Counted from the first letter of the stretch, positions 16,799 through 62,198 are shown. The stretch: DNA of 64,000 bases from Apostichopus japonicus (GCF_037975245.1 NC_092565.1:23338063-23402062), one strand, 5' to 3'. Translations and numbers: made by a program. The notes: a model not told the origin generated them from the letters alone.

Positions 16799-17076
16799 GC
16801 GCGTAGCCAGGAATTTGCCAAGGGAGGGGGGAAAATGTAGGCAAACTATCAGAGCCGCAGATACAGCATTGCAACTATCTAAGCGTAGCCCCACCATGGT
16901 TGGCGTGAAGTGTACAAGAAAATTTTGGCTGAAAATGCCTCCCAGATTGCTGGAAACAGCACTTCCCAGGCCTTGTAAGTTGCATATATATCATAAAAAC
17001 TTTAATAAATTTTTTTAAAATATGCTCAAGGGGGAGCGGCTGCCCCCTTCGCCCCCCCCCCTTGGCTACGCGCCTG
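16799..17076. mobile_element. hAT-like MITE (278 bp) in COX15 intron 8, with terminal inverted repeats CAGGCGCGTAGCC…GGCTACGCGCCTG and an 8-bp TSD ttgcgaac/ttgcaaac
   Basis: Perfect 13-bp TIRs begin with CAG and end with CTG. An imperfect 8-bp direct repeat flanks them (16791-16798 and 17077-17084). The interior is AT-rich and non-coding. It contains the motif ctatctaagcgtagccccaccatggttggcgtgaagtgtaca, which is shared with the element at 31768-32163 and with the repeats at 27100-27610. Confidence 0.6.
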
Positions 17077-17886: not shown

Positions 17887-18260
17887 TTTTTTTTGGGGGG
17901 GGGGAGGTGCTATAATGAAAGTGTCCTGTAATCATGTTTTGTAGCATTGGTTTTGGAGATTGTTCATTCCATGATTCTTACTATGCAGGTCGGTGTTTGT
18001 AGCACAAGGGTCAAGTTATAAGAGGGCAATGGTAACAGGTTCCACTTACTTGTACGTACAGGAGGGGCAGGACAGGGGGGGGGGCTACAATGAAAGTGTC
18101 CTGTAATCATGTTATGTAGCATTGGTTTTGGAGATGGTTCATTCCATGATTCTTACTGTGCAGGTCTGTGTTTGTAGCTCAACATCAAGTTATGAGAGGG
18201 CAATGGTAACAGGTTCCACTTACTTATACGTACAGGAGGGGCAGGACGGGGTGCATGGCA
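17887..18260. repeat. About 187-bp tandem repeat x2 downstream of COX15
   Basis: …gctataatgaaagtgtcctgtaatcatgttttgtagcattggttttggagattgttcattccatgattcttact…ggaggggcaggacagggggggggg repeated at 18076 onward at about 92% identity. Confidence 0.75.
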
Positions 18261-20152
18261 TACACACCCATTATAAACCATAGACTGTTTTCTTGTTCAA
18301 AACATGTCAATTTCGAAAGTAAAATACTCAAGGTATGCAAATCATTGTAATTAATCTGGAATACAAAGATCATGTAGTTAATGTATACACAACATGCCAA
18401 AAGGAAAATTCTAGATTTTTTTTAAGGTGGTGTTCTACATTCCTTCACACTGTTTTTTGCTTAGACTACAGAAATCCTATTTTCTATTCAGCCCCCTTTT
18501 CACCCCTCTGCCTGCTCCCTCATCCCTCTCTTCTACCCTGTTACTCAAGTATTCCATGGGTGACAGGTTATTTAAAAATTGTCAAAAGTCCTCCGATCTC
18601 TTTTCACCAGATGTTAGAAGAGGGCTGAAGCAGACAATTAAGACTAGAGTAGGTGAAGCCAATAGTCTCCAGAGGTGATACAAGAGTTAAAAAGTTTGAT
18701 CATAGCTGACCAATTTTGGTCTATCTGGCGTATTTGCTATATTAGCAAAATCCTCATAGTAAATTTTTACTTTTGCTGTGTTTTCTATACTTGATAGGGA
18801 CACCCAAGTGTACAATTTTCTTTCTTTCATCAGCATGGGAAGTAGAAGTATACTGATTCTAATTTAACCTGTCTGATGTATAACAGGTTATAGAAGATAC
18901 TTCAATTGCAATGAAGGCATGTCCTCTATTTCTTGTGTCTGCATTGAGCAAGTCGGCCATTTCTCATGTCTGTTAATAACTCAAAACGTAGATGAAAACA
19001 ATGATAGACAACAAAACAGACTCTGCTATTGTTCTTTCTTTTATTTCATGTTTTTTATCATTTAAGATATTATTTCATTGCTCGATCATTTCTTAAAGAA
19101 AGAGAAGTACAAAAACAGAGACATATGAAGTATGATAATCCCATCATGAGGGTGATCGATGTACAACACAATGAGTTGAAAAAATATTAATCAAATTTAA
19201 GAATGATTGAAAGTCTTTATGGAAGACGTCCCCTGATCCAAATTAGCATATCCTCTGTCTAGTGCCTAAAATATTATAACTTTAAAAGCTGCTTTTCTTT
19301 GAATTAATATATTACATGCATAATCATAATCAATAATGAACCATCTATAAAAGGAAGCCCAATGCCCCCCCCCCCCCTTAAAAAAAAAACCATTCTTTTG
19401 TTGTTACTGGACCACTTCTGTAGCAAGAACAATTGGTAGGAAATATGGTACTAGACCACTGTAGACTCAATGCAGAAGATAGTTGTATGAGAAACACTAA
19501 ATATATAATGACTATATGTAGCTGTCACTTTCACAAACTAAGTTTAAAGAGAATATGACTTTACAGCAAAATTATGAAAACCTGTCAAATAGTTACAAAA
19601 TCTTATAAAATTTTAATGTTAACTATGGACAGTAAACTTCTAAAAGTTTTCATAGCAATATGTCCACAGGAAAAATAGTAGCTCAGACCTTTGATTGAAC
19701 TTTGATCACATCAAGTAGAAGTTACTGTATGTAAAGGTTAAGTGAAAAGATTTCCACAAAAATAAAAATTACCACGTTCTTCAACAAAACTTTGGTCCCA
19801 TCAAGCTAAAGATTCATTTAGCTTCACTGCAAACTGTACATCCCTTCAATTAAACATTTGCACACAACATAGTCATTTCAACCCCTGACAGATGAAAACT
19901 TAAAATTATCAGTTTCTGAAAATGAATACCAACATGCCAAGTACAATAAATGAGTTAAGTAATATTGATCAGTAAATCCGAGTAGCATACTGTGTAATGA
20001 GTTCAATTCTTGTTAGAAAACGTATTTTCTCAGAGATCAGACTTTATTTTCTTTTTCAAAATCTCTTCTAATCCAAACCGACAATCACTAAATTACTGTA
20101 CTATGAAGTGTGCACATCAGCACACTGCCCTCTCCCTCCTTTTCTTCCCGTA

Positions 20153-20743
20153 CTACATGGGTAATGATTGCATGAAATCCTTCACTGCATCGCCGATCTC
20201 AATTGGAGCATCCTCTTGCAGAAAGTGAAGACCTTTAACCTTGACAACTCTCTGGTATGGCCAGTCTTTTGTCTGCTTTCGCAATCCCGCACTGAAGAAA
20301 CCAGGTTGTCCATCGATAAACATTTTTGGAAAGTCCTTCGACTCGGACAACCATTTGGTATAGGCATCGACTATTTCCACCACATTCTGCGGTCCCGTAT
20401 CACGGAAGGGTATTTGGCGTGGCCATGTTAACGTGGGACGACGCGATTCCCCGACTTCTCTGAAAGGTTCAAGGTACGCATCCATTTCCACTGGATCTAA
20501 CTCTCTCAGGATTGCGTTTGGTAGAAGACGCTCCACAAAGAAGTTCTTCTTGAGGACCATTTCTTCTCCTGCTTCAGATCTCAAAGATCCAAAGATATCT
20601 CTAGAGATATCAGGAAAACTCTTTAAGCTCTTAGCAACTCCAATAACGCCCTCAAAATAGACAACACCTTCCACTTTCTGTTGGTTCTGATGAAGCCAGT
20701 GGAGACCTAAACCTGAGCCCCAATCATGACAGATTATTGTAAT
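20153..20743 (-). CDS. Renilla-luciferase-like protein, copy A, exon 2 (ITIICHDWGSGLGLHW…KGLHFLQEDAPIEIGDAVKDFMQSLPM*)
   Basis: The acceptor cag|ATT is on the minus strand (exon starts at 20743) and a TAG stop is at 20153-20155. The exon carries a catalytic-triad-equivalent Asp in HDWG, Glu in VYFEGV and His in GLHFLQEDAP. These correspond to RLuc D120/E144/H285, with Trp after the Asp. Together with exon 1 it gives a 305-aa protein (RLuc is 311 aa). Confidence 0.85.
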   Translation of the reverse strand: MTIICHDWGSGLGLHWLHQNQQKVEGVVYFEGVIGVAKSLKSFPDISRDIFGSLRSEAGEEMVLKKNFFVERLLPNAILRELDPVEMDAYLEPFREVGESRRPTLTWPRQIPFRDTGPQNVVEIVDAYTKWLSESKDFPKMFIDGQPGFFSAGLRKQTKDWPYQRVVKVKGLHFLQEDAPIEIGDAVKDFMQSLPM

Positions 20744-21537: not shown

Positions 21538-21864
21538 CTTATTTTTCAGGTTTAAAGATTCAAACCACTTTGAGAGGTATTTGTACTGGTCATCATAGGT
21601 GTACATCAAGTCAGGGATTTTACTCGACCTTCCCATGCCAATCAAATCAGGTGCCAAACAGCGGGCAAACCCTTCTACTCGTGGAATGATATGTCTCCAC
21701 AGATAGGACGATGTCGGATTCCCATGAAGAAATACTGCTGTTCTCGATGACTTTTCTTGTGTTGGGTCGGAGTCATAGTAGCTCATTTCGCCATCTAAGA
21801 TCTTGACCCGTTTGTGTGTTGACCACCATTGGTCTGCCGTAATCACGGGCGTAGAGGAGCTCAT
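21538..21864 (-). CDS. Renilla-luciferase-like / haloalkane dehalogenase-family protein, copy A, exon 1 (MSSSTPVITADQWWSTHKRVKILDGEMSYYDSDPTQEKSSRTAVFLHGNPTSSYLWRHIIPRVEGFARCLAPDLIGMGRSSK…LNLKNK)
   Basis: The ATG is on the minus strand at 21862-21864. A GTATGC donor follows codon 109 (minus 21537-21536). The translation aligns to the N-terminal roughly 110 aa of Renilla reniformis luciferase (…WWARCKQMNVLDSFINYYDSEKHAENAVIFLHGNAASSYLWRHVVPHIEPVARCIIPDLIGMGKSGK…). This includes the halide-stabilising Asn in the HGN motif. Confidence 0.85.
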
Positions 21865-22379
21865 GTGGTTAGCTGATACGAGGACGACATTATTTCGCAA
21901 ATGAGAGGTCAAAACGTTCAACCGAGAAACATGTTGAAGTCGTTCCATGATTCTAATCATTGTGACAAGATGGTTTCCAATGAATGGAGTAGCAATAGGT
22001 AGCAAGAAATGGTTAATCACACCAGTCTGTAAATATGGACTCGGGACTTTGACCTAGTAGTATTGCTAGTTACATGGTTCCGCACACTCCGTAACGTACC
22101 TGCGTACCCTCGAAATCCCAGTAGTAATTTCTTAATGGCTGCTAGCTTCAAGCCGGTTGACATTTTCCCAACAAAAATGAAATGTTGGTGTAACCATAAA
22201 TATAACAGGGCAAAATTCTAACTAAGAAAAAAATAAGGGCACACTTTGAGATCACAAGCATATACAGCTCTGCACAATCCCTGACCTTAGTAGGTCAACC
22301 TTTAGCTGATGTAAGTTACTGAAATAAGTAACATAAACAAAATTTAAAAATATATAATAAATTACAGCGACAATTACAG

Positions 22380-22625: not shown

Positions 22626-25600
22626 CTCGCCGACTCGGAGACTTTTTTTTTAAATTATTTTTGTAATATCAAATACATAGTCCAAGCTAGCTCACATTCA
22701 TATACTGAGCATCAATTCTGATTTGTGTGTATCTGGTATATGAAGAGTCGGATCATGGAAGATCATGTGTATACAAGTTTGCGTACCGCTGACATATTAT
22801 ATATAGGCCTATAACAACTACAATTTCAGTGGCTCGCAAATAACATTTACAGCAGATCCAGAATATATATCGTCTATTATATATAATTTACAAAGAGAAG
22901 GATTACGAAGTATTCTAAAGGCATCGGCCAGACCTTACCGTGCACGAGGCAACCGAGCATAACTCTTGACTGCCCGTACCATGTGCCTTTCTCTTTCATA
23001 AAAAAATAAATTTGTGAAAACCCTGCAAAATGAAATCGTTTTTTTGCAAAACGATGATCCAATATTCGCAAACTTTTGTAAAAAAAAAATGTAAAGAAAA
23101 ACTGCCGCACGACTGATGGTGGCCATGGGGGACATACCCCTTTCCCGAATTTCCGCACGCCATTGACAAGTTGTGTTATTTATTCATCGGACTGAGTTAT
23201 AGCTATTTGATCGAATGGAATTGTAACGGAAAGATTATGTTTCGTAATGAAACCTATAAAGCATGCAGCCACATTTCCTCTTCTTTTTATATACTATATA
23301 TGTGTTTACAAGGACACCGAATTTGAGGAATCTATTTTCTCCATGATGTTTTAGTATAAATTTTGTTCTGTTTATTCATTAAAAGGGGATGAGAAGGAGG
23401 CCCCCAATGACAGATATTTGGTTTCTACGCCCGCCCCCCCCCACCACGGACAGCTGCATCCCTCTCCTTTATGGAGAACTGCAGCTGCAAGTAATGTAGG
23501 CTATAGACGCTTATAAATTTCTGTTTATGCAAAGGAGAGCTTTATCGCAATGAAGGTTAAGCCGACTCGTAAATTAACGTAACTATAAACTTGCCTGCTT
23601 GTCAATCAGTGAAAAATCTCTCCTGTTGCTCGGATCTTAAGTACAATTTCGCTACAATCTCTGTACTCTATAACTCATATATACGAACAAATCAACTGCA
23701 TCCTGAACTCGGGATTAATTTATCTTAAAGCGATTTGATGTAGCCTACGTTTTAAACTATTTAGTTGAATTCTTTGAAGTTGTATAAGATCGAAAGAACA
23801 AACAAACAATAGGGAAGTCAATAGAAGTAGAGCCTTATGTGGTTTCTGTATCAGCTATACCAGGGACGGGATTTGTTGTCTGAAGTTGGAGTGGCAAACC
23901 CGGGGAAGAGGTTTCAGGGGAGAGGGATATATGTTTAGATTTGATTAAGCCCTAGCTTATTCCTTGTACTAGTTGTGTATTTGAAAATCGCCCGCCTCCC
24001 CCTCTGTAATCCCACCACTGGACTATGCTGTAATTCTGTGTGGCCCTCCGTATTCGATGCTTATAGCCTGTGCGAATAAAGTACGCCACTAGTGTCGTTA
24101 AAGGTAGTCAGTATAGGCCCCAAATTATAGCACGCTATATATTTGCTAGAAGTTTTCAAACAGTACTTTCCTGGAGGTCTTTACACTCCAAATTGTTCTC
24201 ATACATTTTTAAGGAACACACAAGATGACCTAGTGAGGAAAGTTTCCTCGAAGGTTGTATTAAAAAAAAGTTTGAGAATTTTGACCAAAGGTGACCATAT
24301 TCGAATATCTAGCATATTTGGGGCCAATACAGCATACCTATAAAAGCCGACGCCTCTGTAAGGTTGTCTGCGTTAAAACAGGGTGAAACCTCAAACTTCA
24401 AATGGTGCAATCCGAGGCATATTTAGACTATAAATATTGTCTATAATTAGGTCTATAAACGAAATGTTGTGCTTATACATACTTCTGAATTTTTGTGTTC
24501 AGGTGAAGGGGGGGGGGGTAGATACCCTACACCGTCCACCCCCTGTTGACGTAGATCCGCGACGTCTGCTATATATAGTAACGCAATTTATCAAACTTCG
24601 AAAACCGACTTCCACCTATAAATTGGACGGTCAAATGAGAAAGCAGTTACCATATAATAACATGCCTTGTACATGATAAAGCATCTCATGAGAAAGTTCA
24701 TGTTTGAGCGTCATGTCTGTAACATTTTGTTTATACACGAGGTCATTTTAGGGCATTCCCTTAGCAACCAGTAGTAACCTGTCAAGGAGACAACTTACAA
24801 TACCGATATAGTCTATAATAACACTACTCGTTCTGTACCTCTGTATAACTGTCATGTAACCTTTTATATCTGCATCTACAAATCACCTTAATAAACTTAT
24901 ATTATAGACTATTCTGTTATCTCTCGACACCTGGCAACATTTCGAGGCATTGGAGACTATATAGGAAAGTGTAACTGTATGTGGCACGTACATAACAATA
25001 TTTTGTTTTATAGAGGGAGGGTGGGTGGGTTGGGGTGGGAGGGTGGGTGGAGGACACACATAAGGCCTTTATCATCTTTAAAGGAAAGATCCCTTGAATA
25101 ATCAATTTTGACGATATCGTTCGATGAATTAATTCCATCCTTTATTTTGCCAAATCTTATTACTAAAGTATAGATTTCGGATCATCTCACTCCAAAATCT
25201 CAAAGTAAGTAATCTCTAATTTGCGAAAACTGGGGCATATGAAATTCCTGTGGCGAGAGGCGCGGGGGGGGGGGGGGGGGCAGCCGGCTATTCATCGGGT
25301 ACCTGTCATGCCCAAGGCGGATGATGGGTATCTGTAGATCCATCTCCGTGGTTTGATCATGGTAGTTTACCCCCGCATTCTACCTCAACAGGAAAACAGA
25401 CGACCACAGTACCCCAAACTCCATCACCCCCCCCCCCCAACCCTCACCGAAAACAGTAACAACAGCTTGGTATACGGTAGTTATACGCAATTGCACTCCA
25501 CCAATAGAGTATAGGCTATATAGCAAAACTTTGAAGCACGACTTTCATCGATACTACCATGGGCGGGATTACGGGGGGGCAAGAGGGGGCACCCCCCCAC

Positions 25601-27094
25601 TTTTTCCCAGACCTTAGTTCACTTTTTTGTCGTTTTTGCAGACAAATGTGCACAACCCTAATCGAAATGATTCCCCCACAACAGCTCTATCAAATAAGCC
25701 TATTTGTTTCGATTGTAAGTCGAATTTGTGTTTAACATCGTAACATGTAGCATGCAGAATAACTGGAGCTGGAGCTAGCCACATGGTTCATAGCACAGGT
25801 TACGAATCCTGGAGCTAACACACTAGCGATTCAATTCTGCATGTGATGAATCCGCGGCATGTGCTACAGTGCTAGCTCCAGAAATGTCTCTCTGATTTTC
25901 AACGTTGCTGCTCTACTGAATGCGTTGAATAACTAAATCCAGAGAAACGATTTACGAAAGCCAGATTTGCATATTGGGTATATCAATAATTAAATTCAAC
26001 ACACTGACACATGACACCCCCCCCCCCCCCGTGTCATTCAACAATATGCAATGGCAATGCCGATGTAATTTCTTTACTGCTCGAAATCCTGGAAGGATGC
26101 ATGCAAATCGAATAATGTAAATTACAAATTGGCACTAACACAGTAACACATTAAATCCATTGTTACAGTATACAGCACTCGGCAGTTTCGGTATGGCCGA
26201 TAAAATAATGTGTGGCTTTGAGTTCCTTTTTCGGATCTATTCTCGATGATGAATGGAAACACTTACGTTTGGTCTTGAACTGAATATGGATTGTGTTCAG
26301 AAGCTGTCACGGCTGAGATGAACATGTTTAATCGAATCTACGCTGCAACTTATCCTACCATGGAAAGCTGTTTCCAAAAGCGCTTAGATTTCTTCCAGAC
26401 ACAAAACCTTAGTCAGAGTATGAGCAATGTTGCATTTCGATTTCGCCTCTTTATGACAACTTGATGAATTCGGCTATACATGCGAAAGGAGCTTCTCCTG
26501 CCTTCGCAGATTAAAAACCTACTTGCGAAACACCACAGGTCAAGAACGACTAAATAGCTTAGCTGTGTTGAACATTGAAAGAACCATCGACGAAGACATC
26601 CATAAAGTCGTTAGTCGATTCGCCACACATGAAAGTGTCAGCGGACGTCGTCTAGCCCTCCATTAACAGTAACATTCAAGTATTTATTATGCATTTCTAT
26701 GTTGCCTGATAATCTGGCAATAGTTCAAACATAATGCTGGTACTGCCAGGTAATAATTTTATTTTCAAAATCTCAGCCAGTACTATGAAATGACCCGTAA
26801 ATATTGCTCCATGTTGCACCTAGTCGCATTGTAAAATCAAAAAAGTCACCCGCCTCGACTTCAGTGGCGACGGAACCGGTGGATTTGAGGGGCTTATTCC
26901 CCATGAAAAAAAATGGGGGGTAAATGTATGTTCAGCCCCCAATATTTGCCAAGTGCTCCAAGAAGTGGGGACCGCGGGGAGAATTTCGAAGTGGGTGCTG
27001 AACATATTCTTGATCGGTCCAATGCACAATATAGTAATAATTTTAGGGGGAAAGAACTGTCTAGATGCGATTTATTGTTACCAGAGGTGTCATT

Positions 27095-27700
27095 TTTGCT
27101 GATCTAGGATTTCCTTTTTGCTTAAATTTCGACGCGCCGCGCCAACTTATGATGGTGCACCGCCTAAATAGTGACGTATAAGCTTCAGTTGTACATCACC
27201 ATATAAGTTCTTCTATCCGTCCTCCCTAAATTTACACACGTTCATTACTTGTTTAGATGCAATTTAAAGACTATATGGGTGTTAATTTTACCGATCTAAG
27301 GGTACCTTTCATCGAAAATTTCGACGCTCCTTACCAACCGGAGATGGCCCTCCGCTTAGATAGTGACGTATAACAAAAGTTGTACATCACCATCTGACCA
27401 TATGTTCTACTATCAATCCTCTTCAAATTTTTAAACGATAATTAACTATCTATACAATTGCAGACATGAGATCCATATTTCAAGGATGGGTACATGCAGA
27501 GCACTCGGGAAGTGCCGTTTCCGGCCATCTCGAGGGTTTGTAAAGCCAAAAAAAATTTCTTGTACGCTCCGTGCCAACCGATGGTGGCGCTCCGCTTAGA
27601 TAGTCTTGCTGCCAGGTTTGTCCCACCCCCCCCCCACTTTCACAACGCAAATCCCGCCCCTGGATACTGCTATGGGTCGGTTACATGATAAAGCCTTGCA
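27095..27700. repeat. About 200-bp tandem repeat (about 2.5 units), 360-960 bp upstream of luciferase-like copy B; the units contain the MITE-family internal motif in reverse orientation
   Basis: The units start near 27101, 27301 and 27520. Each contains …ttcgacgc(g/t)cc…ccaac(c/t)(g/t)a(t/g)(a/g)tgg(t/c)(g/c)c(a/t)c(c/t)gc(c/t)taaatagtgacgtata…, the reverse complement of ctatctaagcggagcgccacca..ggttggcgcggagcgt found inside both MITEs. Confidence 0.7.
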
Positions 27701-27974
27701 GCAATTTTACCTAGCTCCTTTAACGTACGGGTACTGTAAAGTTCACGTCGAGGGTGAACTCAACCATTAAGATGTGATATTAAGCCATCTGGATTTTATT
27801 GTAAACAGATAAAGTAGCTTGTGATAAAGTTCATGTTTGCGTGCCATTTATGTCATATTGTATTTATGTATATTTTCATTTTAGGTATAGGTTATCGCTA
27901 AGACGATCGCTTGCTATTTTACGTGATCCGCCACCATCAATCGGCTGTATATCATTATGGCAGTGGCCTGTCAA

Positions 27975-27995
27975 ATAGACAACTAATATATATAT
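27975..27995 (+). promoter_or_regulatory. (TA)n / TATA-like element about 75 bp upstream of the copy B ATG
   Basis: The sequence taatatatatatatatc is at 27977-27993, and tataag is at 28034-28039. There is no transcript evidence. Confidence 0.25.
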
Positions 27996-28061
27996 ATATC
28001 GCCACCTAAGACGACTACCAGTTCTGGGGTTGCTGCTATAAGATCTACATTCGGATAAAAC

Positions 28062-28388
28062 ATGAGTTCTTCTTTGCCGATAATTACTGCAGACCAATGG
28101 TGGTCAACACACAAACGGGTCAAGATCTTAGATGGCGAAATGAGCTACTATGACTCCGATCCAACACAAGAAAAGTCATCGAGAACAGCAGTATTTCTTC
28201 ATGGGAATCCGACATCGTCCTATCTGTGGAGACATATCATTCCACGAGTAGAAGGGTTTGCCCGCTGTTTGGCACCTGATTTGATTGGCATGGGAAGGTC
28301 GAGTAAAATCCCTGACTTGATGTACACCTATGATGACCAGTACAAATACCTCTCAAAGTGGTTTGAATCTTTAAACCTGAAAAACAAG
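28062..28388 (+). CDS. Renilla-luciferase-like protein, copy B, exon 1 (MSSSLPIITADQWWSTHKRVKILDGEMSYYDSDPTQEKSSRTAVFLHGNPTSSYLWRH…LNLKNK)
   Basis: The ATG is at 28062 and the donor AAG|GTAAGT is at 28389. From codon 10 onward the sequence is nucleotide-identical to copy A exon 1 except 2 synonymous positions. The first roughly 27 nt differ (MSSSLPIIT versus MSSSTPVIT). Confidence 0.85.
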
Positions 28389-29370
28389 GTAAGTCAATTT
28401 ATTTTTCTCACGCATGATATCACTTTATCAATATTGAATGTATTAAATATAAATTCTAACAGGTGTACAGAAAATGCTTTCTCTTGAACTATAAGATGCA
28501 CGGAGTAAACATTTACACACACACTAACACACTTGAAATGGACGGTGTTATCAACTAATTTTCGTACATGTTAGTCCATCATTTTATTGACCTATCTTAT
28601 ATAAAAACTTGACCGAAAAAAGTTATCTAAACTGCATGTGAACCACAAGAGCTTCTCGAAGGATGAAATCTAATCAAAATTTTCCTTCATGAAATGTTAA
28701 TTTTCTATAAATAGCCAATGTTATAGAATAGGGGCAACAGGTAAAATACTTTGTGGTGTAACTCCTTGTCATTTAGTGATGTAATTTTATATTCTGCAAA
28801 TATAGTCCAGCCATTTGACTGTCAAGTGTCCGCTTGGGGAAGGGGAGGGAGGGGGAGGGGTTGGAATGTACACCATCCCTCTTTTTTAACCCAACACCAT
28901 AACTAAAAGTAGCTATTAACACAACCTTGCCAGTTAGTCCTAATTTATAACCTAAACATGTTTTGTTTTTTCGAGGATGGTATTTATGGGCACAACATTG
29001 CGTTAAGACGTAAGTTACAGTCTAAATATGTCTCAGAACAGCAGAATATACCATCTAACGCATAAATGCCTTACTTGGAAACCCGATACTCCTAATATGG
29101 GAATCGGCATTACATATTATAAAATATTCCCAATTCTAACTATAAAATGTCGATTATAACCCGTATATTTCCCTTGTGCATTTATAGAGTAATTAACCAT
29201 TGAGTCTGATATGAAAACTTGGTTAACAATTTCAACTCAAAAGTGCATCATGAACAGGTGTTTCTCGCTTTCAATTGTCAAAAATATGGTTTGTTTTTCA
29301 AGATTCTAATGTCCGTATCGTGATCCTCTTCATGAATATTCATATCTGTTATTTCTTTAATTTTATGCAG

Positions 29371-29961
29371 ATTACCATCATTTGCCAAGATTGGGGATCT
29401 GGTCTGGGTTTAAACTGGCTCTATCAGAATCAGGATAAAGTTGAAGCATTGGTCTATTTTGAAGCCATTATTGGGGTTCATAAAAGCCTAGATGATTTCC
29501 CAGTTCTAGCTAGGAGCGCCTTTCAGGGTCTTCGCTCCGATGCTGGGGAAGAAATGGTGTTAAAGAATAACATGTTTGTTGAACAACTACTCCCGATGGG
29601 CGTGGCGCGTAAATTGGACCCGATTGAAATGGAGGCGTACCGAGAACCATACAAGAAGGAAGGTGAGTCTCGACGCCCTACCCTCACTTGGCCACGTGAG
29701 ATACCATTTAGAGACACCGGTCCAAAGAATGTTGTGGATATCGTGGATACGTACGCTAAATGGTTGTCTCAATCAAAGGATTTGCCAAAGTTATTCGTAG
29801 ACAGTGAACCAGGTTTCTTCAGTGCCGAATTGCGGAAAATCAACAAGGATTGGCCGAATCAGAAATCTATGACAGTTAAAGGGATACATTTCCTTCAAGA
29901 GGATGCACCAGTAGAAATCGGTGATGCTGTTAAAGAGCTCATGGCCTCTATCTCCAATTAA
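29371..29961 (+). CDS. Renilla-luciferase-like protein, copy B, exon 2 (ITIICQDWGSGLGLNW…KGIHFLQEDAPVEIGDAVKELMASISN*)
   Basis: The acceptor is ttttatgcag|ATT and a TAA stop is at 29959-29961. The exon is the same length (591 nt) as copy A exon 2 but only about 70% aa identical to it. The catalytic Asp (QDWG), Glu (YFEA) and His (GIHFLQEDAP) are retained. Confidence 0.85.
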   Translation: MTIICQDWGSGLGLNWLYQNQDKVEALVYFEAIIGVHKSLDDFPVLARSAFQGLRSDAGEEMVLKNNMFVEQLLPMGVARKLDPIEMEAYREPYKKEGESRRPTLTWPREIPFRDTGPKNVVDIVDTYAKWLSQSKDLPKLFVDSEPGFFSAELRKINKDWPNQKSMTVKGIHFLQEDAPVEIGDAVKELMASISN

Positions 29962-30989
29962 GAAGAAATCAACGTGTTTCCGCCATTTTGATATTACTGA
30001 ACTTTAATCAGCATTCATTAAATGTATGACCTGTTCGAAATTAAACCAAGAGTACTGCTATGACGTCATCTCCGCGCGATACCTTCAAACAGGGCCCGAG
30101 TTGTAACAGGATAGCAAGCTTAATCGGGACACACATCTATTTAAACGAATGTTTAATTTCGAAGGCAACGGTTGTCGACACACACAGCGTACACAAAAGT
30201 ATTACAATGCGAGAATTTGACAATCTCAGTTTCGTAATATCATATTCAGAGTTCTTAACTTTTTAATATATTGATTCTTGACGATGATATCATACTTTTG
30301 CTAGATGTAATTACTCCACTTCTTCATTAATAGATAACATTAAGAGATCTGTGATATTTATCGTACCTTTAAATTCCCGAACAACTTTACTCTGAAGTTG
30401 CAAAAAAACGCCAATTCGCTAAAAAACCAACATAAGACATATTTTAGCATATGTAAAATGCGTAAGCTTTTAATGTCTTTGTTAATGTGCTCTGAATCGC
30501 AATTGGAAGTTATAAATGTCTCAAAAAGTGGTTGAAATACCTATTTTTATGTTTATTTCTGTTGGCAACGTATACTTATGATTCGGCAACTTAGCTGAAA
30601 AAACTCAAAAGACACAAACAGACACCGTGACGACTAAACATTACTGTGCAAATTATGGACATAGCACAGTGAACCTAAAGTGCCAGTTTCATTTTAGTTA
30701 TTTTAAGCTCAAATTCTATGAATTCAAGTTCGTGTCGGGAGGGAAACAATTATGAGTAGATGCTAAAATCATACTTTTTTGTAAAGTAGAACAGAGCTTG
30801 TGATAAACGTCATGTATGCGTAACATCCGTCACTTTATGTGCACTTACATCGTGGGAGTTTGGACATGATCTACCACTATGATCGGATTTATATAGACCA
30901 ATAACTTTATAGACAATTTCAAGTCAAAGAGATAAATATAGGTCTGGCGGGGGGGGGGGGGGGCTTCTGGCTTGTTTAGATTTACAGGT

Positions 30990-31140
30990 TGCCGGCGGTT
31001 AATAAAGACGAATGGTGTTCTGCACACAAACGAGTCATTGATCTATATGGCGGAATGAACTGCTATGACTTCGATCCAGTCTTACACGATAAAAATCACT
31101 CCAGAACAGTCCGGTTATATTTCCATGAAATCCCGAAATA
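30990..31140 (+). pseudogene. Decayed third copy of luciferase-like exon 1 (…WCSAHKRVIDLYGGMNCYDFDPVLHDKNHSRTVRLYFHEIPK*)
   Basis: The nucleotide stretch aatggtgttctgcacacaaacgagtcattgatctatatggcggaatgaactgctatgacttcgatcc… is clearly homologous to the exon-1 sequence aatggtggtcaacacacaaacgggtcaagatcttagatggcgaaatgagctactatgactccgatcc…. It carries an in-frame stop and lacks the HGN motif. About 250 bp upstream (30760-30850) lies the same promoter-proximal module that is found upstream of copy B. Confidence 0.5.
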
Positions 31141-31767
31141 GATCTACATCTTTCTGAAGAGACTATCATTTTCAGAAAATCGCATCATTAGTTCACAGCA
31201 AGGCGATTTGTACCGTTCTCTGAGAAGGGATAGACTTTCTTATTTTCGTCTCTTACCCATACGTAATTGAAACCGTTTTTTGGACGTTAACAATGAAACG
31301 CCCAAACAAAGGCGGTGGGCCCTAGTACGTATCAGTGTCGGGTTTGATGATTCTGATTCTGACAATGGCTATGGTTATGACTAGGACTACCGGTATATCA
31401 TGACTATGACCACGACCACGGCCACGACCACGACTATGAGTATGACTATGATTATGACTGAAAATATACCAAAACAATCACTCTCTTAGGTCATTTTAGG
31501 TATTCTGTTTTTTTTTTCACGACAATGGTTAACCTTTCGAGAGGATATACTATAATTGTGGTATATCTGGCCACCATATTGCAATTCCTTTACAAATCAA
31601 AACTTTACTACTTCATCGGAGAAATTAGCCATGTGCAATTTGTTATTTCACGCTTCGAAAAGCAACTGGAGGGATTAACCGAAAGCTGCGGCTGGCTGTT
31701 TCAATGTTTAATTAGGGGTTTTGATTCTCTGGAAAGAGTAAAATCTCTAATTATGTGTGTACAAATA

Positions 31768-32163
31768 CAGTGGCGGAGCTAGGGGTATTGGTCAGAGGGG
31801 GCGAGAATTGTCTATAGGGGCGCTTTTGACACTATCTAAGCGGAGCGCCACCACAGGTTGGCGCGGAGCGTACAGAATTTTTTTGAGTAAAGATACTCCC
31901 TAGATCGCCGAAAATGACCCTTTCCGGGCCTTGCTAGTTTGCAGATAAACGAAGAATAAATAGCCGTTAGAGCATTTTGTCAGAAAATTACAGCAAGAAA
32001 ATGTGACAAATGTCAATATTTTTATGAGGAGCGCAATAAAAAAGTCAATAATCGCGAATAAGTAAAAAGTCGTAAAAAGCTGAAAAGGGCGCCAGCAATA
32101 CATTTGAGTCCGTCGGGGGGCATTCGCCCCCCCCCCCCTGACTATATGGACGCTCCGCCACTG
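31768..32163. mobile_element. hAT-like MITE (396 bp), same family, with TIR CAGTGGCGGAGC…GCTCCGCCACTG and a perfect 8-bp TSD tacaaata
   Basis: The TSD tacaaata is at 31760-31767 and again at 32164-32171. There are 12-bp perfect TIRs. The internal sequence ctatctaagcggagcgccaccacaggttggcgcggagcgtacagaattttttt is homologous to the interior of the 16799-17076 element. The ORF-track entries 31525-31782 and 31900-32187 overlap it and are spurious. Confidence 0.65.
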
Positions 32164-33970
32164 TACAAATATTGAAAATCTGAACATGGAGTTATAGCTG
32201 CTGTTGAATCAATAAAAATCAATAAATATATAATTATAAATAAAATTCACATAAACTTTATATAAAATAAAACTTTTTGTTTACTATTGAGAACAAATAG
32301 CTTTAGTCCCAAATTTTGGAAGTTTTTAAAATTATTTTTATTCTTTATTATATAAAATAGACACAAAACGTTGTTTGCATTATATTCTGTACTAGAATCT
32401 CTCCTTTATGCCAGATTGGGTGAAACATGAAGAAAGTTTGAGGCTTGATTTACACACTTGCCAATGTAATTGAATTGCTCTGCTGTTCCACCCCCCCCCC
32501 CCCCGGGCTCTGCCCGGCCCTTCTCTTCCGCCCCCACCTTTTGATAGCTTATTATACCTACCCCATTGCCGCTGGCGCTTAGTGTTCTTTTGACTTCAAA
32601 GAGGGCAAGGTTCGAGAAATCTGGGTCTCATATCCCAACCCCCCCCCCCCCACTTCAAAATGTACTCCGCCTTCAGTGTGACTTACTTTTTCTTGTATAA
32701 GGATTAATTATTGAATTTTAAAGGCAAAATGTACTGCTCAATTGTCATGATGATATCATTCACTCTGCATTCCGAACCATCACCAAATTTCCAAAAAAAT
32801 AATGTCTTGGCCAACAAAAGTCCATGAGGATGTTGCTATGACCTAAGATACAGAGAATGTGTAACAATTTTGTCCAGCTATAAACTTCAGCCACTATATA
32901 GAATATCCAGAAGTTTTGGCTTATCCGACTCGAGTCGAACTTACGCAAATCTGTTCGTCAGCTAAGATATTTGCACCTGCAAAGCGCAGTGCTGCTGAAA
33001 TTGTATGCTTCCTTCAAACCGGTTGAAGGTGCCTTGCTTTGTACCAAAGTACTAATACAACAACAGACAGGATATGCGTAAAGGTTACACAGGCTAGTAC
33101 TAGTATACAGTATCAATTGTTTCATATACCATACCAATTACGATGACACAAAACAAGACTACACTGATATTTTTTGCTCAGATAGTATCAAATCCCCTCA
33201 TATAATTTGAAGTCTGATGCCCAACGTTATTCGGCCTTCCATTGAGTCGAAGAGTAAGAAAGGGTGATCATCTCGTTCGGGAACTTACTTAAACCCAACG
33301 TTAATTAGGCCTATACTTATGCCTACCTCAGTCTGGGTAGGCCTAGTGCTAATTAGTATGACCCTAAGTCACCCTAGTCTAACTTACTAATAATACTAGA
33401 TCTAGCTTAGGCTTGAATTAAGCCGAGCACTTAACGCAGTTCTTTGGCCCAGGCGGAACTTGTAACATTAGGCATTTCAAAGCTAGATAGTATATTTGAA
33501 TGTATGCGTAAAGATGTGAAAACTTTTCCTTGCTTCAACTTCTAAGTTCTAGTTCTTCTGTAGAACTGTTATAATTGAAAACCTTTAGAAGTGTAACTGT
33601 AAATCTATCTCATCCTGGTTGAAGGATAAAACGAAGTCATATAGCAGATGAAAATGTAGTCATCACCTTTGACTCTTAAAAGGGCTTTTGTTCACATTGC
33701 TATATACAGTGTCATTAGAGATCGACAAAATTAGAGCTTGTAAAATTAATGATTGTATACAAACTGTAGAAGATTCTGACTAATGGCCATGCACCTAAAT
33801 CTTAAAATAAAAACTTGTTATTAAAATAATTTCAATATCACATGTAAACCCATAAATTGCAGAACCACTTGTGATCGAATTGGAATCAACTTTTTGATTA
33901 AAAATTACAACAAAGAAAAAAGAGAATGACTTGTAATACAATTTTTGTCCTTCAAATCCTACAGGTTAAA

Positions 33971-39453: not shown

Positions 39454-39544
39454 GTATCCTTTTAGTTTATATACCATCTGTTGAATAGACAGTGGCTCTT
39501 TGTGAGGTTTTCATTATTGTGAATGTGTTGGCCTACAGTGAACA

Positions 39545-40110
39545 CTCCAAAGCCTACCACCCCCAAAGCCTACCACCCCCAAAGCCTACCACTCCCAAAG
39601 CCTACAACCCCCAAAGCCTACCACCCCCAAAGCCTACCACCCCCAAAGCCTACCACCCCCAAAACCTACCACCCCCAAAGCCTACCACCCCCAAAGCCTA
39701 CCACCCCAAACCTACCACCCCCAAAGCCTACGACCCCCAAAGCCTACCACCCCCAAAGCCTACCACCCCCAAAGCCTACCACCCCCAAAGCCTACCACTC
39801 CCAAAGCCTACAACCCCCAAAGCCTACCACCCCCAAAGCCTACCACCCCCAAAGCCTACCACCCCCAAAACCTACCACCCCCAAAGCCTACCACCCCCAA
39901 AGCCTACCACCCCAAACCTACCACCCCCAAAGCCTACGACCCCCAAAGCCTACCACCCCCAAAGCCTACCACCCCCAAAGCCTACCACCCTCAAAGCCTA
40001 CCACCCCCAAACCCTACCACTCTCAAAGCCTACCACCCCCAAAGCCTACCACCCCCAAAGCCTACCACACCCAAAGCCTACCACTCCCAAACCTACCACC
40101 TCAGTGTTTT
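39545..40110. repeat. 16-bp minisatellite (ccaaagcctaccaccc)n, about 35 units, in ZDHHC16 intron 3
   Basis: It is directly visible. The period is not a multiple of 3, so the three frames give the same 16-aa Pro-rich period (PKPTTPKAYHPQSLPP). This explains ORFs 39492-40121 and 39523-40173. Confidence 0.9.
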
Positions 40111-40649
40111 CATCTAGATGATGTTGTTCATCCAATCCCAATTCTCTGGATTATTTCTTCTCTGCTAAGATAAGGTATTGTTATTGGTCAATTGATCTGA
40201 TTACTTTAGCCTGTCATGTTATACAATGAAAGTTAGGCCAGCCATACTATAGAAACATCTGTAGAAACAGTAGTAATAGTATGTTAGAGATAACTCTATA
40301 CTTTGTGCTAATGTATTTGTAATTGCAGGGTTTTCTTTTGTCTGGATATTCCATGGCTGACTTTTTCTAACTTACAAGAGTATTCAGGTGGATTCACATA
40401 CAGTATTTAATAGAAATTTGCGGATATTTAGGTAGTTTCCGACAAAGTTGTAATAATTAGCGGGCAAAAACTTTCTTGACAATGATTGACTATTTTACTC
40501 TGACTTATGGAATATATGGTGCATGTGTGCTAGAGTGAGCCATTTATATTTAAAATCTGGTAATATTTCCACAAAGTTACCAGGCACTATTCAAAATCAT
40601 ATTTTCCTACTAAACAGAAGGGGAACCACGACTGAGACCACACCCGTAG

Positions 40650-54000: not shown

Positions 54001-54652
54001 GTTTATGCTTCATGAGTGAATAACCAGATCTAAGTTGAAAATTTAGTAGTAATTCTTAATTTTTTATGATATCCACCCACATCTTAGTTGCTAGGAATTA
54101 CAAGATGACCATGACAGCTTAGAATAAAGAAGGCAGCCTTTCACTGTGTTAGTAGAACCAATGGATGCTTCTTCATGTTCACTGTATGAAGTTCAGTTTA
54201 AGCTTTTAATATAAAATACTACCTTGTTGAGGTAATCACATTCCAAATTTGAGTCTGTTAAATAACAAAGCTTTTTTTGTGTTGCGTTTGCCAACATTCT
54301 GGTTGTCAGACACATTAACCTTGAAAGGACATATCAAAGTACAGAACATTATAAGACTATTAATTATGTTACTTTGGTCAACCAAACTTGCACCAAGAGT
54401 GACAAAATTAGCCTGCACTCCAATTAACATCCCTTAACATCCAACACCCCTTGAACGTTCTGAACTGTTTCATACTGTAATGAAACAGTTTACAACATTA
54501 AAGAAATACTTCATTGGCTGAAGTTGCTTGTTAATAAAAAAGTGTCCAATATTTTCTGCATCAATTTGTCAAAACAACATCCTCATAGCATTTTGTATGA
54601 CAAAGATGTGAATTTTTCAAATTTGGTAATATTTTGTGAAATGAATCCTATT
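48056..54652. repeat. Tandem segmental duplication, copy 1 (about 6.6 kb)
   Basis: It is colinear with 54653-61573. Long stretches were compared by eye: 48058-48700 versus 54653-55290 are about 97% identical, 50490-51500 versus 57540-58500 about 90%, and 52000-54440 versus 58960-61400 about 96%. The junction is …gtgaaatgaatc|ctattcaacagtaaaaagg. Confidence 0.85.
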
Positions 54653-57600
54653 CAACAGTAAAAAGGTGCATTATGTCTGTTTTGACATGGAAACAGTGAA
54701 TTGACAATGACAACATTTACAGCCCCAATTCTTATATTAAGAGAAGGCCTGGCTTTATAGGTCTCTTACAAATTTAATTGTGGTTATTGTTTTTCAGCTA
54801 AGTGTAATGCATTTTTGTTTCCAGGGTAACAGACTTACTCTGGTAACTAACAAGTATGTTCATTTTCGAAAACATTTCTTGGCGACAAGTAGTATGCCGA
54901 GCAAGCAACAGGCAGATTTAAATAGCTTTAGCGTATTGGGATATTGTACCAGCAAATATTCCAGGGGGCAAATAATTGTTGGAAAAGTAGGTAAAAAAAA
55001 ATACTCGGAGCTCTGGCTATGAAGAGTATTTGTGTAGATTTATTGTTCCATTCTTGTGAAGTCTAATATTAGTGTTTGATATAAAATTCATTTCCAGATG
55101 TCTTGTTGCTCAAAATGAATAAGCCTGTGACAGATTCACAGTAATGTATGTATCTTGCAAGAAATAGCATAGTTCTAGGACACCTTTTAGGTTTACAAAC
55201 TTTGTTTAGCATTAAATAAAGAAAGGATTTATGCTCAAAGACCTTACCAATTTTGTCATCTTGCAAAGCCGTTTGAAACACGAACCAGGTAAATTGTTAC
55301 ACATTTTCATCTCGGTTTATTCATTCCAAATTTTGATACAAAGTAAAAAAAAAACTGCAGATTTTTCGGTGGGGTGGGGGGGGGGCAGTCTAAAACCCCT
55401 TGGATCAAATTGATGACTAATATGAGTATCAAAGTTGTGGTCTGTAAGAGACTACAATGCATCACTAATTGATAATGGTACCTACTGACTTATGCTCAGT
55501 ATAATGTTCTTCTTGATAAATCCTTGAAACTGAGTAAATTTGGGATGTTTGCTCAGCTGTCAATGTTTTTTGTATTTAAGAAATTCATCAAAATGCATCT
55601 TTTTGTAGAAATATTCTTTTCCTGTAAGGATAAATTTATTGTCATATTATTAAGAAATACAAAGTCATTTTCAGCTGAAGTGCCGTGATGGCATCAGTCA
55701 TTCCGCTATGGCCAGATGCATTAAGCAAATATCACCAAATTTGTAAACAATTCAGATCTTCTTGATTCAAACTGCTATTAGGATGAGGTTTTTTGTCGTA
55801 AGGTGCCAACATTTTCAACAATCATGCTAACCGATCAACTTCAGCCACCAGAAATTCTTTTTAATTATTAGTTTGTTAGAAAATAATATACATTACATAT
55901 GGATTTAATAATATACATTACATATGGATTTTAAATCTGGTGTTAAATTGTGAAACAGATAGCAATCTGAAGATAAGTTAAATGAATAAACTAAAATTGA
56001 CTTGTGTTTGGAACAGTCATGTTTCCCTGCCATGTTTTTTGATTTGTGAATTGATTAAAGACATGATTTAAGCCAGAAAGTTAGTTTTGGTGTGTCACTG
56101 TCTAGCTAAGACACAAATTATGTTAGAAGGTTATGTTCTGAAGTTTTCTGCACCATACTCGGGAGTGAATGTACTGGTCTCATCATTTCTGTCTCTGTGT
56201 GTGAACAGAGAGCTGTCAGTGTCTAAATTGCAGCTCCCTGGTATAAATAAGTCTTAAAGTCAATTTATTGTTCATCTATTGGCTTTGGTGCTATATCATA
56301 CACTGATGGTTGTTGTCTTCATTAATCCCGTAAGGCAACAGTCCACAGACTACTTTCAGTAGGTCACGAGACTTTTCAAGAATGTCAGGAATTCATCTAG
56401 TTTTCAGAACTTATAGATTAGGTTACTTGAGTTAACATCCAGTCCACAATCTAAGCTAGATCACTTCTCAGACTTTTGGCTAAGATTATGTGTAATATCT
56501 GTTCCCTTTCAAGGGGAATGGTGATGCACACCCGACGATGATCACACACTCACAGTCCCGATGCAAGGGGACTGGGGTTGAGAGCGGATCAGTCGTTTGC
56601 TAGTTTGATTTTTCGTGCCCTTGGGGTCTTTCCTGGGTGACTATTCTTAAAAAGTATCTAAGCTAGTTTTCCTGCATTCTGAGCATTCATTCTCAAAGTG
56701 TTGGGTCGTGGCTCGTTCCAGACTCAGTATCCTGGGTCATGGGACTAAAAGTTTGCTGCCTGCTATTGTAAGGTATATGTATTAATTTGTGCTTTAATCC
56801 ATTCTTTCATCTAACTTTTTTTGTAATTTGCCATATTACTTTCAGTTGCAAAAAAGTTAACACAAAGTGGAATGTGAAAAGGTTGATTTATTTATTTATT
56901 GTAATGAGGGCACAATGACTGTACAGACTTGATTACTTTGTAGATTGGTATTATAAGTAGCATATTTTGTTGAGGGGGTTGTGACAGGAGAGCGGTAACA
57001 AAGGGCGAAGGGTAAGGGGGGGGGGCATCAATATGGTTTGATCGCTGAAAAAGGTGCAATGTACATTGATTAATATTCTAAGAAATTAAAGGGCAGTGTA
57101 ATTTTAAAAAAAAATCATGTATTGTTTAGCTGAATCAGATTATTGATGTTAATATGCTGTTAAAGCAGTAAATCAGTTTTTGATCAGTAGATTTTATTAC
57201 TTTCTTGCCAATTATTAAGGTCTTCATGTAACTTGGTTTGTTTTAGGAAGTTGCTTATAAAGACAGGGTCTTGCTCGTCCTGGAATAGTCACCGGAATGC
57301 ATGTACCCTCCCAGGACTGTCCTGGAACTTGTCAAAACATAATGAATAATTTATATTTTACCTTCGAATAATTTCAATTATATTTAAACTATTATTTGGA
57401 AAGATCACTTGATGGTAATCAGTTATTATTTACTACTACAATGTTCATAAGTTCATCCACACTTGCAGATAACAGAATAAAGATCTTTGTATAACTTCAC
57501 TGTGTAATTCACATTTTAATCATCTTTGTGAATTGGCTGAAGTTTCCCCAGTTAAAACGTAGTGTGTTCATTTGCAGGGAAATGTCAAAATGATCAATGG

Positions 57601-60600: not shown

Positions 60601-61573
60601 TATCAAACATTTTAAGTTTAAAGATCTAGTTGTAGAAGACCAAGGTGATTAAATATACATTTTAATGAATTATTCACTGAATTCTATTACCAACATTTTT
60701 CTTTTCTACTTTGCTAATTTCTTTATTTAATCGATTATTAAAAGGAATCATTTTAGAATTTCAGACAGAAAATGTTCAAAACTTGAGGAATGGTATACTG
60801 ACAATTAACAAGTCAAGTGGGCATTGTTAGTTTTACATAAATATCATTAACTAAAGAATGTAGCTATGATTATGAGAGAGAAGAGCTGCATTATTTTCAT
60901 TACCCATACAGAAATTGGAACAGCCTGATGGAATTCAAATGTAACTTTTTTGGGTCTCCTTAATGTTAATGATTTTATGCTTCATAAGTGAATAACCAGA
61001 TCTAAGTTGAAAATTTAGTAGTAATTCTTAATTTTTTATGATATCCACCCACATCTTAATTGCTAGGAATTACAAGATGACCATGACAGCTTATGCTAAA
61101 GAAGGCAGCCTTTCACTGTGTTAGTAGAACCAATTGATGCTTCTGCATGTTCAATGTTTGAAGTTCAGTTTAAGCTTTTAATATAAAATACTACCTTGTT
61201 GAGGTAATCACATTCCAAATTTGAGTCTGTTAAATAACGAAGCTTTTTTGTGTTGCGTTTGCCAACATTCTGGTTGTCAGACACATTAACCTTTAAAGGA
61301 CATATCAAAGTACAGAACATTATAAGACTATTAATTATGTTACTTTGGTCAACCAAACTTGCACCAAGAGTGACAAAATTAGCCTGCACTCCAATTAACA
61401 TCCCTTAACATCCAACACCCCTTGAACGTTCTGAACTGTTTCATACTTTTGCTTTTTAATAAAAAAGTGTCCAATATTTTCTGCATCAATTTGTCAAAAC
61501 AACATCCTCATAGCATTTTGTATGACAAAGATGTGAATTTTTCAAATTTGGTAATATTTTGTGAAATGAATCT
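54653..61573. repeat. Tandem segmental duplication, copy 2 (about 6.9 kb; carries extra insertions at 56460-56655 and about 57300-57480)
   Basis: As for copy 1. It ends at …ttgtgaaatgaatc|tggcaacagcag, where homology to the unit start is lost. Confidence 0.85.
56460..56655 (+). mobile_element. 196-bp retroposon whose first 46 nt are U2-snRNA-like (ATCACTTCTCAGACTTTTGGCTAAGATTATGTGTAATATCTGTTC), flanked by an 11-bp TSD atctaagctag; present only in copy 2 of the 6.6-kb tandem duplication
   Basis: It matches the U2 snRNA 5' end (ATCGCTTCTCGGCCTTTTGGCTAAGATCAAGTGTAGTATCTGTTC) at about 38/46 positions, starting exactly at nt 1. The remainder is not U2. It has a short A-rich 3' end (ttcttaaaaagt). 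The target site atctaagctag is duplicated (56449-56459 and 56656-56666). The paralogous site in copy 1 (about 49838-49848) is unoccupied. Confidence 0.55.
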
Positions 61574-62198
61574 GGCAACAGCAGAGTGAGTGATGTCATC
61601 CAGCACTTCAGTTGTAAATGTATTTGTTCATCTTTATAATAATTTAACTCATTCACAGAGGAATATCATATATAACATTTCTACAAAAAAGTTTGATGAA
61701 ATTATCAATAAAGAGGAAAATTGAAAGAGAAGATTACAGAAGCGTAAGTAAAATTTTGAAGAGCATTTGTGATCCATTCCCTGAAAAGGATCAAGCCATT
61801 CAATCAACCATAGGTTGAGTTGACACAAGATATTGAGATATCTCAACTAGCAGTGAGGAATATTTTTTTCCTTTTCCATGAAAGTGTCACAATATCTGCC
61901 ACTGGAATATCTGTTGCCACAAAACGTGGCAGTCCCTGCCACAAAATTTTGCAGTCAAATGGTTAACCACATAGACCTGCTAAGTAGTTTAATTAGGTCC
62001 GCCCAAACACAAAATACAGCTTTGTTTAACTTGACTTCCTGAAAGCATTGGAAACTAGGTCACTCCCTCTCAATTTCTTGTGCTATGGTACTTACATGAC
62101 GCTCGCTTTGCTGTTTTAATATATATATAAATTCATATAAAAGTCAACAAAGCTGTAATATTTACATCGTCACTGATGCTGATAAGGTTTTAACCTTT

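Follow-up and report, generated by a model that had tools for sequence, protein, structure and literature searches.

Probable relics of local duplication on either side of a Renilla-luciferase-like gene in the sea cucumber Apostichopus japonicus

When an intact gene is flanked by short sequences resembling its own 5' end, the question arises whether these are the remains of complete genes, partial copies of a single gene or fragments of an unrelated repeat. A 64-kb stretch of Apostichopus japonicus DNA (one strand; hereafter the window, to which all coordinates refer) raises this question for a pair of Renilla-luciferase-like genes, A and B, which lie head to head. On either side of B, and on its strand, lie two short sequences that match the 5' end of B, designated psi0 (upstream) and psi1 (downstream) (Table 1). 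An earlier note on this DNA had read them as remnants of a larger tandem array, formed by repeated duplication of a promoter-plus-gene unit and followed by decay and by an inversion, or an inverted duplication, that gave rise to A. The analysis presented here retains the duplication and the decay, and suggests a more modest origin: psi0 and psi1 are probably short, dead copies of the 5' end of a B-type gene, left behind by local duplication and drifting neutrally without function, while A lies outside this history.

The evidence is most complete for psi1. In a self-comparison in which the region from 17 to 34 kb was searched against the whole window, the decayed exon 1 homolog that the earlier note had placed downstream of B was recovered with E=3e-18, at 71% identity to B exon 1 over 184 columns, or 79% at the 166 positions that remain when only ungapped sites are counted; its match to exon 1 of A is equally good (70%). 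In translated searches, tblastn on psi1 yielded 40% identity over 55 amino acids, interrupted by an in-frame stop (E=5e-6), and a hidden Markov model (HMM) built from 26 family sequences picked up psi1 weakly in six-frame translation. The decay of this copy is extensive. The counterpart of the B ATG region (28055–28073) has been deleted, and with it the start codon, and nine indels (1, 1, 5, 1, 2, 1, 1, 5, and 1 nt), none of them a multiple of three, all shift the reading frame, in addition to the stop codon. What psi1 retains is the 5' 55% of exon 1, preceded by about 260 bp of upstream region, and its homology breaks off abruptly at B position 28241.

The sequence upstream of the pseudo-exon likewise matches that of B, as the earlier note had observed. 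Its core is 69.5% identical to the B upstream region over 105 columns, and a single local alignment runs collinearly across B 27739–28241 and the whole of psi1, being patchy between the core and the exon. Because module and pseudo-exon follow one another collinearly, and because no poly(A) tract was seen in the window sequence at the 3' end of the homology, psi1 can be classed as an unprocessed copy rather than a retro-copy, with the exon homology, disabling lesions and co-duplicated flanking sequence that characterize unprocessed pseudogenes. The B upstream module, psi0 and psi1 are all present too in an older assembly (GCA_002754855.1), whose scaffold MRZV01000214.1 is 98–99% identical to the window, and psi1 was found up to position 30956 in an independent Logan unitig. 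Intergenic homopolymer runs of G or C, 10–20 nt long, are frequent in the window (24508, 25262–25281, 25427–25437, 26015–26027, 27626–27635, and 30947–30964, among others) and coincide with the ends of short-read unitigs; the end of unitig L006, for instance, falls at the G run at 30947.

The second relic, psi0, confirms the observation that the B module recurs near 24650 with no exon following. It consists of two blocks, of which the first (24667–24752 against B 27799–27885) is 72–73% identical to B over 87 columns (E=2e-8) and the second (24773–24835 against B 27962–28026), found by pairwise search, is 69–71% identical and collinear with the first; a weak extension may reach upstream to 24583. 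Homology to B again breaks off abruptly, in this case at B 28026, 36 bp before the B ATG.

The significance of these upstream matches was assessed on 400-bp upstream windows against 500 dinucleotide shuffles. The B region scored 30 against that of psi1 (shuffle mean 10.9, sd 1.3; z=15) and 37 against that of psi0 (z=18), and the B module is significantly similar to both of the others. When the 400 bp upstream of B were compared with all 400-bp windows on both strands of the 64 kb, only psi0 and psi1 stood out, the next best score being 19. The upstream flank of A, by contrast, scored 11 against B, equal to the shuffle mean, and the earlier statement that it shares none of the module therefore holds. 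The module itself is less tidy than the 250-bp unit first described: its coordinates were about right, but the well-aligned part is a core of some 90–150 bp accompanied by patches. Within the B upstream region the best-conserved core (27799–27885) contains AGATAAAG, TGATAAAG, and ATGTTTGC, which we take to be GATA-type and forkhead-type motifs, and a TATA-like (TA)n tract lies near 27977–27992. The GATA-like motifs lie at 27807–27829 and the forkhead-like motif at 27835–27842. Each of the relics lacks at least one of these motifs that is intact in B, a loss that fits decay better than continued function. A structured RNA gene was considered and rejected as far as the available searches reach: Rfam gave no match at the gathering threshold and a single one at E=0.95 under relaxed settings, a tRNA scan found none, and no folding signal was detected (z=-0.27). 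The 5' ends of L003 and L004, two transcripts of another holothurian, did not align to the B upstream region or the modules, a comparison that is uninformative as to a 5' UTR (untranslated region) because coding identity of about 73% between the species makes non-coding homology undetectable.

The substitutions accumulated by the relics bear on their age and on whether they were ever used. Between psi1 and B exon 1, 35 of 166 aligned sites differ, distributed over codon positions 1, 2, and 3 as 9, 16, and 10 mismatches in 55, 55, and 56 sites. The substitution pattern is hence neutral, albeit in a small sample, and the lack of a third-position excess suggests that coding constraint never acted on psi1 for long. 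When psi1, the A. japonicus exon 1, L003 and L004 are aligned four ways, psi1 agrees with the A. japonicus exon 1 and not with the two foreign transcripts at 16 sites, the reverse is seen at 6 sites, and 35 changes are private to psi1. The balance of shared states and the many private changes suggest that psi1 originated long ago, yet on the A. japonicus lineage, once this had separated from that of the L003/L004 holothurian. Jukes-Cantor distances (K) amount to 0.25 for the psi1 exon and to 0.32–0.36 for both modules (0.33–0.36 for the psi0 blocks), values close enough to suggest a similar age for psi0 and psi1.

Comparison with the relics also hints at a constraint on B itself. In a three-way alignment of the core, 5 private changes fall on B, 12 on psi0, and 17 on psi1, and the divergence between modules, about 0.33, is well under the value of about 0.5 that would be expected were both copies drifting at the rate of psi1. 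The few private changes of B, together with a module distance below expectation, suggest that the B core is partly constrained. A coherent sequence of events can then be proposed, in which a local, DNA-level duplication in direct orientation would have copied the 5' end of B on the A. japonicus lineage, perhaps as fragments of only 0.2–0.5 kb, after the split mentioned above, and both copies would have drifted neutrally ever since, with no function. They would remain recognizable only against those parts of B that are themselves constrained, namely exon 1 and the upstream core of about 90–150 bp, a correspondence that makes the B core a probable promoter or cis-regulatory element of this gene.

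Table 1. Features of the luciferase-like locus in the window (coordinates in nucleotides from its first letter).
Feature	Position	Strand	Description
psi1, whole	30726–31170	+	Collinear with B 27739–28241; 0.77 kb downstream of the B stop codon
psi1, upstream-region relic	30726–30988	+	Core 30726–30821 corresponds to B 27739–27842; patchy collinear similarity up to the exon relic
psi1, pseudo-exon	30989–31170	+	Corresponds to nt 13–180 of B exon 1 (28074–28241); no ATG; stop TAG at 31139–31141
psi0	24667–24835	+	Two collinear blocks matching the B upstream region; 3.1 kb upstream of the B counterpart; no exon
B upstream region	27739–28061	+	Presumed promoter-proximal, from its position only; parent-like copy of the module
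Gene B	28062–29961	+	Two exons; 305-aa product
Gene B, exon 1	28062–28388	+	109 codons; from tblastn and comparison of the spliced product
Gene B, exon 2	29371–29961	+	Stop codon included; from tblastn and comparison of the spliced product
Gene A	21948–20153	-	Head to head with B, 6.2 kb apart
Gene A, exon 1	21538–21948	-	Contains the conserved N-terminal extension (21948–21865); upstream flank unrelated to the module
Gene A, exon 2	20153–20743	-	Stop codon included; from tblastn
Gene-conversion tract	28089–28384 (+) against A 21837–21542 (-)		1 difference in 296 nt, 99.7% identity
Dispersed repeat, ~100–130 bp	27089–27173, 27241–27365, 27506–27604 (+); 31826–31960, 16869–16988 (-)		Five copies; contains CCAACCGATGGTGGCGCTCCGCTTAGATAG
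hAT remnant, probable	~26370–26660	+	Decayed open reading frame fragment LRRLKTYLRNTTGQERLNSLAVLNIERT; weak match to the C-terminal dimerisation domain (E=5.5e-4, slightly short of the Pfam threshold)

What separates this account from that of the earlier note is whether whole gene units were duplicated. On the latter, there would have been at least three tandem units, each complete and about 3 kb long (from the module through exon 1, the intron, and exon 2 to the 3' flank), and deletion and transposon turnover would have removed everything from the outer ones except the 5' ends. Such arrangements most often arise by unequal crossing-over, which generates whole units, and the three modules do lie on one strand at offsets of 3132 and 2987 bp; we nevertheless consider the whole-unit array a possible but doubtful explanation. 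Homology across the gene body is lacking in the outer units, for blastn at a word size of 7 found nothing after either relic that matches the other parts of the B unit (intron, exon 2, 3' flank, and the 3' 45% of exon 1), even though equally old sequence in the exon 1 fragment can still be recognized at about 70% identity, and neither tblastn at E values up to 10 nor the family HMM run with filters off in all six frames revealed further exon relics anywhere in the window. Two HMM matches downstream of psi1 (31355–31411, E=77, and 31480–31701, E=12) are collinear and on the plus strand, but they stand at noise level and were discarded. Complete units would furthermore call for two extra deletions, independent of each other and both leaving nothing but the 5' end, and psi1 bears no sign of past coding constraint. 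Nor does the near-equal spacing count for much as evidence of an array: it may be a coincidence, because the interval between psi0 and B holds three copies of a dispersed repeat, a weak remnant of a hAT dimerisation domain and a difference of 5.2 kb between assemblies. What survives of the proposed tandem duplication is a local, direct duplication of the 5' end of B, followed by decay: the three modules are paralogous and on one strand, and in psi1 the module was copied along with exon 1, its order and orientation unchanged and its spacing similar.

The repeats of this region suggest another origin for the copies, in which the module, or at least psi0, would belong to a transposon fragment or to a repeat dispersed across the genome, which happens also to make up the region upstream of B. 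The missing exon of psi0 fits this idea, as does a neighborhood rich in other repeats and transposon remnants, with one insertion polymorphic between assemblies. However, neither the other ~57 kb of the window nor the 5.2-kb insertion holds a further copy. The copies are not bracketed by target-site duplications or terminal inverted repeats, and the two collinear blocks of psi0 cover the region upstream of B up to a point 36 bp before the ATG. Membership of the module in the local repeat family (27089–27604, 31826–31960, and 16869–16988) was also tried and dropped, because the two share only a 17-nt inverted match and direct alignment shows no similarity. Above all, the module of psi1 is collinear with exon 1 and was hence copied together with the gene, and we regard a dispersed repeat as unlikely. 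Even less likely, in our view, is that the relic modules have been retained as working extra cis-regulatory copies (shadow enhancers, or alternative or decoy promoters) that serve B or its neighbors, including a DHHC gene. The same core of about 90 bp, with its GATA-like and forkhead-like motifs, is best preserved in both relics, and 4 of the 13 occurrences of GATAAAG in the window lie in or beside the modules; but the relics have diverged from B about as far as the dead pseudo-exon has (compare the K values above), each has lost at least one motif that B keeps intact, they barely resemble one another, and constraint on the B copy alone fully accounts for the pattern. A more specific variant, in which comparison with its dead paralogs reveals B 27739–27885 as a selectively maintained cis-regulatory module with paired GATA-type sites and a forkhead-type site, and in which the relics, still bound by the factors that bind this module, would tune B or the DHHC gene as shadow or decoy elements, is judged improbable to much the same degree, if marginally less so. 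Chance or base composition, lastly, might be invoked for short alignments of AT-rich sequence with identities of only 69–73%, but its probability is negligible: none of the 500 dinucleotide shuffles came near the observed scores, only the psi0 and psi1 windows stand out in 64 kb, and the matches run in line with the homology in the exon.

Several points nonetheless weigh against the interpretation of psi0 and psi1 as neutral relics of local duplication. Compared directly, the two are only marginally alike (score 16, z=3, reached by 5 of 500 shuffles), each being far nearer to B than to the other. The asymmetry of rates in the core rests on small counts (5 against 12 and 17) in an alignment centered on B, and may be biased. 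An origin in a dispersed repeat whose other copies lie beyond the 64-kb window and the 5.2-kb insertion retains a small probability, mainly for the exon-less psi0, and both the absence of function in the relics and the promoter function of the B module are inferred from sequence.

The transposon-related sequences of the interval can be described further. The dispersed repeat, which may be a short interspersed nuclear element (SINE) or a miniature inverted-repeat transposable element (MITE), includes a stretch of about 190 bp that is locally duplicated in tandem (27058–27264 and 27250–27459), and the open reading frame (ORF) fragment with similarity to hAT, located in the intergenic region between A and B, is probably a transposon remnant. 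The older assembly carries a transposon-like insertion of 5.2 kb (L001 3750–8976) at window position ~27020–27023, where the window has none. This insertion comprises three adjacent broken ORFs of an unnamed protein family without a Pfam domain, which occurs widely among marine invertebrates (Mytilus, Holothuria leucospilota, Exaiptasia, and Pinctada), and it is probably a recently mobile element; a search with these ORFs gave no A. japonicus protein of near-identical sequence. A second dispersed repeat family, with 61–70% identity and members on both strands, occurs at 32688–32894, 54515–54630, 55617–55848, and 61463–61619.

In the earlier note, copy A was produced from the array by inversion or inverted duplication, a part of the proposal that the sequence relationships of A do not support. 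Over the exon 2 part, A shares 78% of its amino acids with P0004 and 69% with B (P0003 and P0004 being proteins of the holothurian that provided L003 and L004), while B is closest to P0003, though only at 72% against 68–69%. Because A is nearer to P0004 than to B, and B slightly nearer to P0003, the duplication that separated A from B is placed before the holothurian split. Furthermore, A bears an N-terminal extension (MERLQHVSRLNVLTSHL; presequence-like, MERLQHVSRLNVLTSHLRNNVVLVSANH) that aligns at the DNA level with the A-type transcript L004 and contains an RLxxLxxHL-type motif common across deuterostome homologs, whereas B has no such extension and carries a TAA 6 nt upstream of its ATG. 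A, which has this conserved deuterostome extension, thus keeps the ancestral 5' end, and the 5' end of B, with the module, is the derived one. A is hence best described as an old paralog with an ancestral 5' end, independent of the array around B, and the two products may differ in subcellular targeting.

The close resemblance of A and B in exon 1 (98% amino-acid identity) invites the reading that they are recent duplicates, and this natural misreading is corrected by the distribution of their differences. The two are nearly identical at CDS (coding sequence) nucleotides 28–323, with one differing site; outside this tract, the first 27 CDS nucleotides hold 8 differences, the introns have diverged after some 15 bp, and nucleotide identity in exon 2 is only 68%. 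The independent Logan de Bruijn unitig L006 begins exactly at 28089, the boundary of the tract. The near-identity of exon 1 is a recent gene-conversion tract of about 300 bp. The pattern, a tract of ~300 bp at 99.7% identity between flanks and second exons at about 68%, is that of interlocus gene conversion between inverted paralogs; it differs from the history of the relics in that it concerns the intact A and B, psi1 lying outside the conversion.

The parent genes can be assigned to a family with some precision. The spliced product of B matches P0001, an annotated A. japonicus protein ('putative renilla-luciferin 2-monooxygenase'), at 100% identity, and the parent genes belong to the alpha/beta-hydrolase fold (Pfam Abhydrolase_1, E=1e-19). 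The best PDB matches of B are AncHLD-RLuc, the reconstructed ancestor of the haloalkane dehalogenases (HLD) and Renilla luciferase (RLuc), at E=7e-127, and RLuc itself at E~1e-94. In the 26-sequence alignment, N49, W117, and E140 (B numbering) are invariant and D116 and H282 nearly so, which provides the catalytic Asp-Glu-His and the halide-stabilizing Asn and Trp of HLD-II/Renilla-luciferase-like enzymes; these five residues (N49/D116/W117/E140/H282) presumably correspond to N53/D120/W121/E144/H285 of RLuc. As far as can be judged from such comparisons, A and B are Renilla-luciferase-like/haloalkane-dehalogenase-like alpha/beta hydrolases, with a luciferase or dehalogenase activity that is putative. 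To our knowledge A. japonicus is not bioluminescent, and for this reason the two enzymes are probably dehalogenase-like or serve another, as yet unassigned role.

Truncated, unprocessed pseudogene fragments beside their parents and exon-scale conversion between paralogs are textbook outcomes of birth-and-death and concerted evolution, and the relics are an unannotated, new instance of ordinary birth-and-death evolution in a gene family; they do not challenge current understanding. Like the unprocessed 'gene relics' found at the edges of tandem families, they are DNA-level copies that include non-transcribed upstream sequence and lie in direct orientation beside their parent, and psi1 is truncated and frameshifted, with a stop codon and substitutions spread evenly over codon positions; they differ in that only the 5' end survives in both. 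Nine Renilla-luciferase-like copies, seven of them in two tandem clusters, have been reported from a brittle star (Amphiura filiformis), copies are known from sea urchins too, and duplication of luciferase-like genes has been reported for all echinoderm lineages except sea stars (bioRxiv 10.1101/2023.10.30.564762; PMC5413902; PMC12059646); none of these papers mentions the A. japonicus locus. The present locus shares with those clusters the gene family and the linkage of several copies, but it holds only two intact genes, head to head, and two fragments. Its value is modest. The relics date a burst of local duplication at a sea cucumber luciferase-like locus, and show that the B-type gene gained a new 5' end devoid of the ancestral N-terminal extension, and the short, probably constrained core upstream of B offers a cheap candidate for promoter or enhancer dissection.

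The annotated neighbors of the locus are a COX15-like gene that ends near 17.7 kb (converted coordinates) and the DHHC gene, which starts near 33.96 kb. Beyond the latter, the plus strand at 39492–40173 carries two overlapping long ORFs of proline-rich repeats (PKPTTPKAYHPQSLPPPK), with a GC skew of -0.24 and raised GC content, which may represent either a minisatellite or a coding exon of repetitive sequence. Immediately downstream of the COX15-like gene, a tandem duplication with a unit of about 175 bp and 90% identity occupies 17900–18264.

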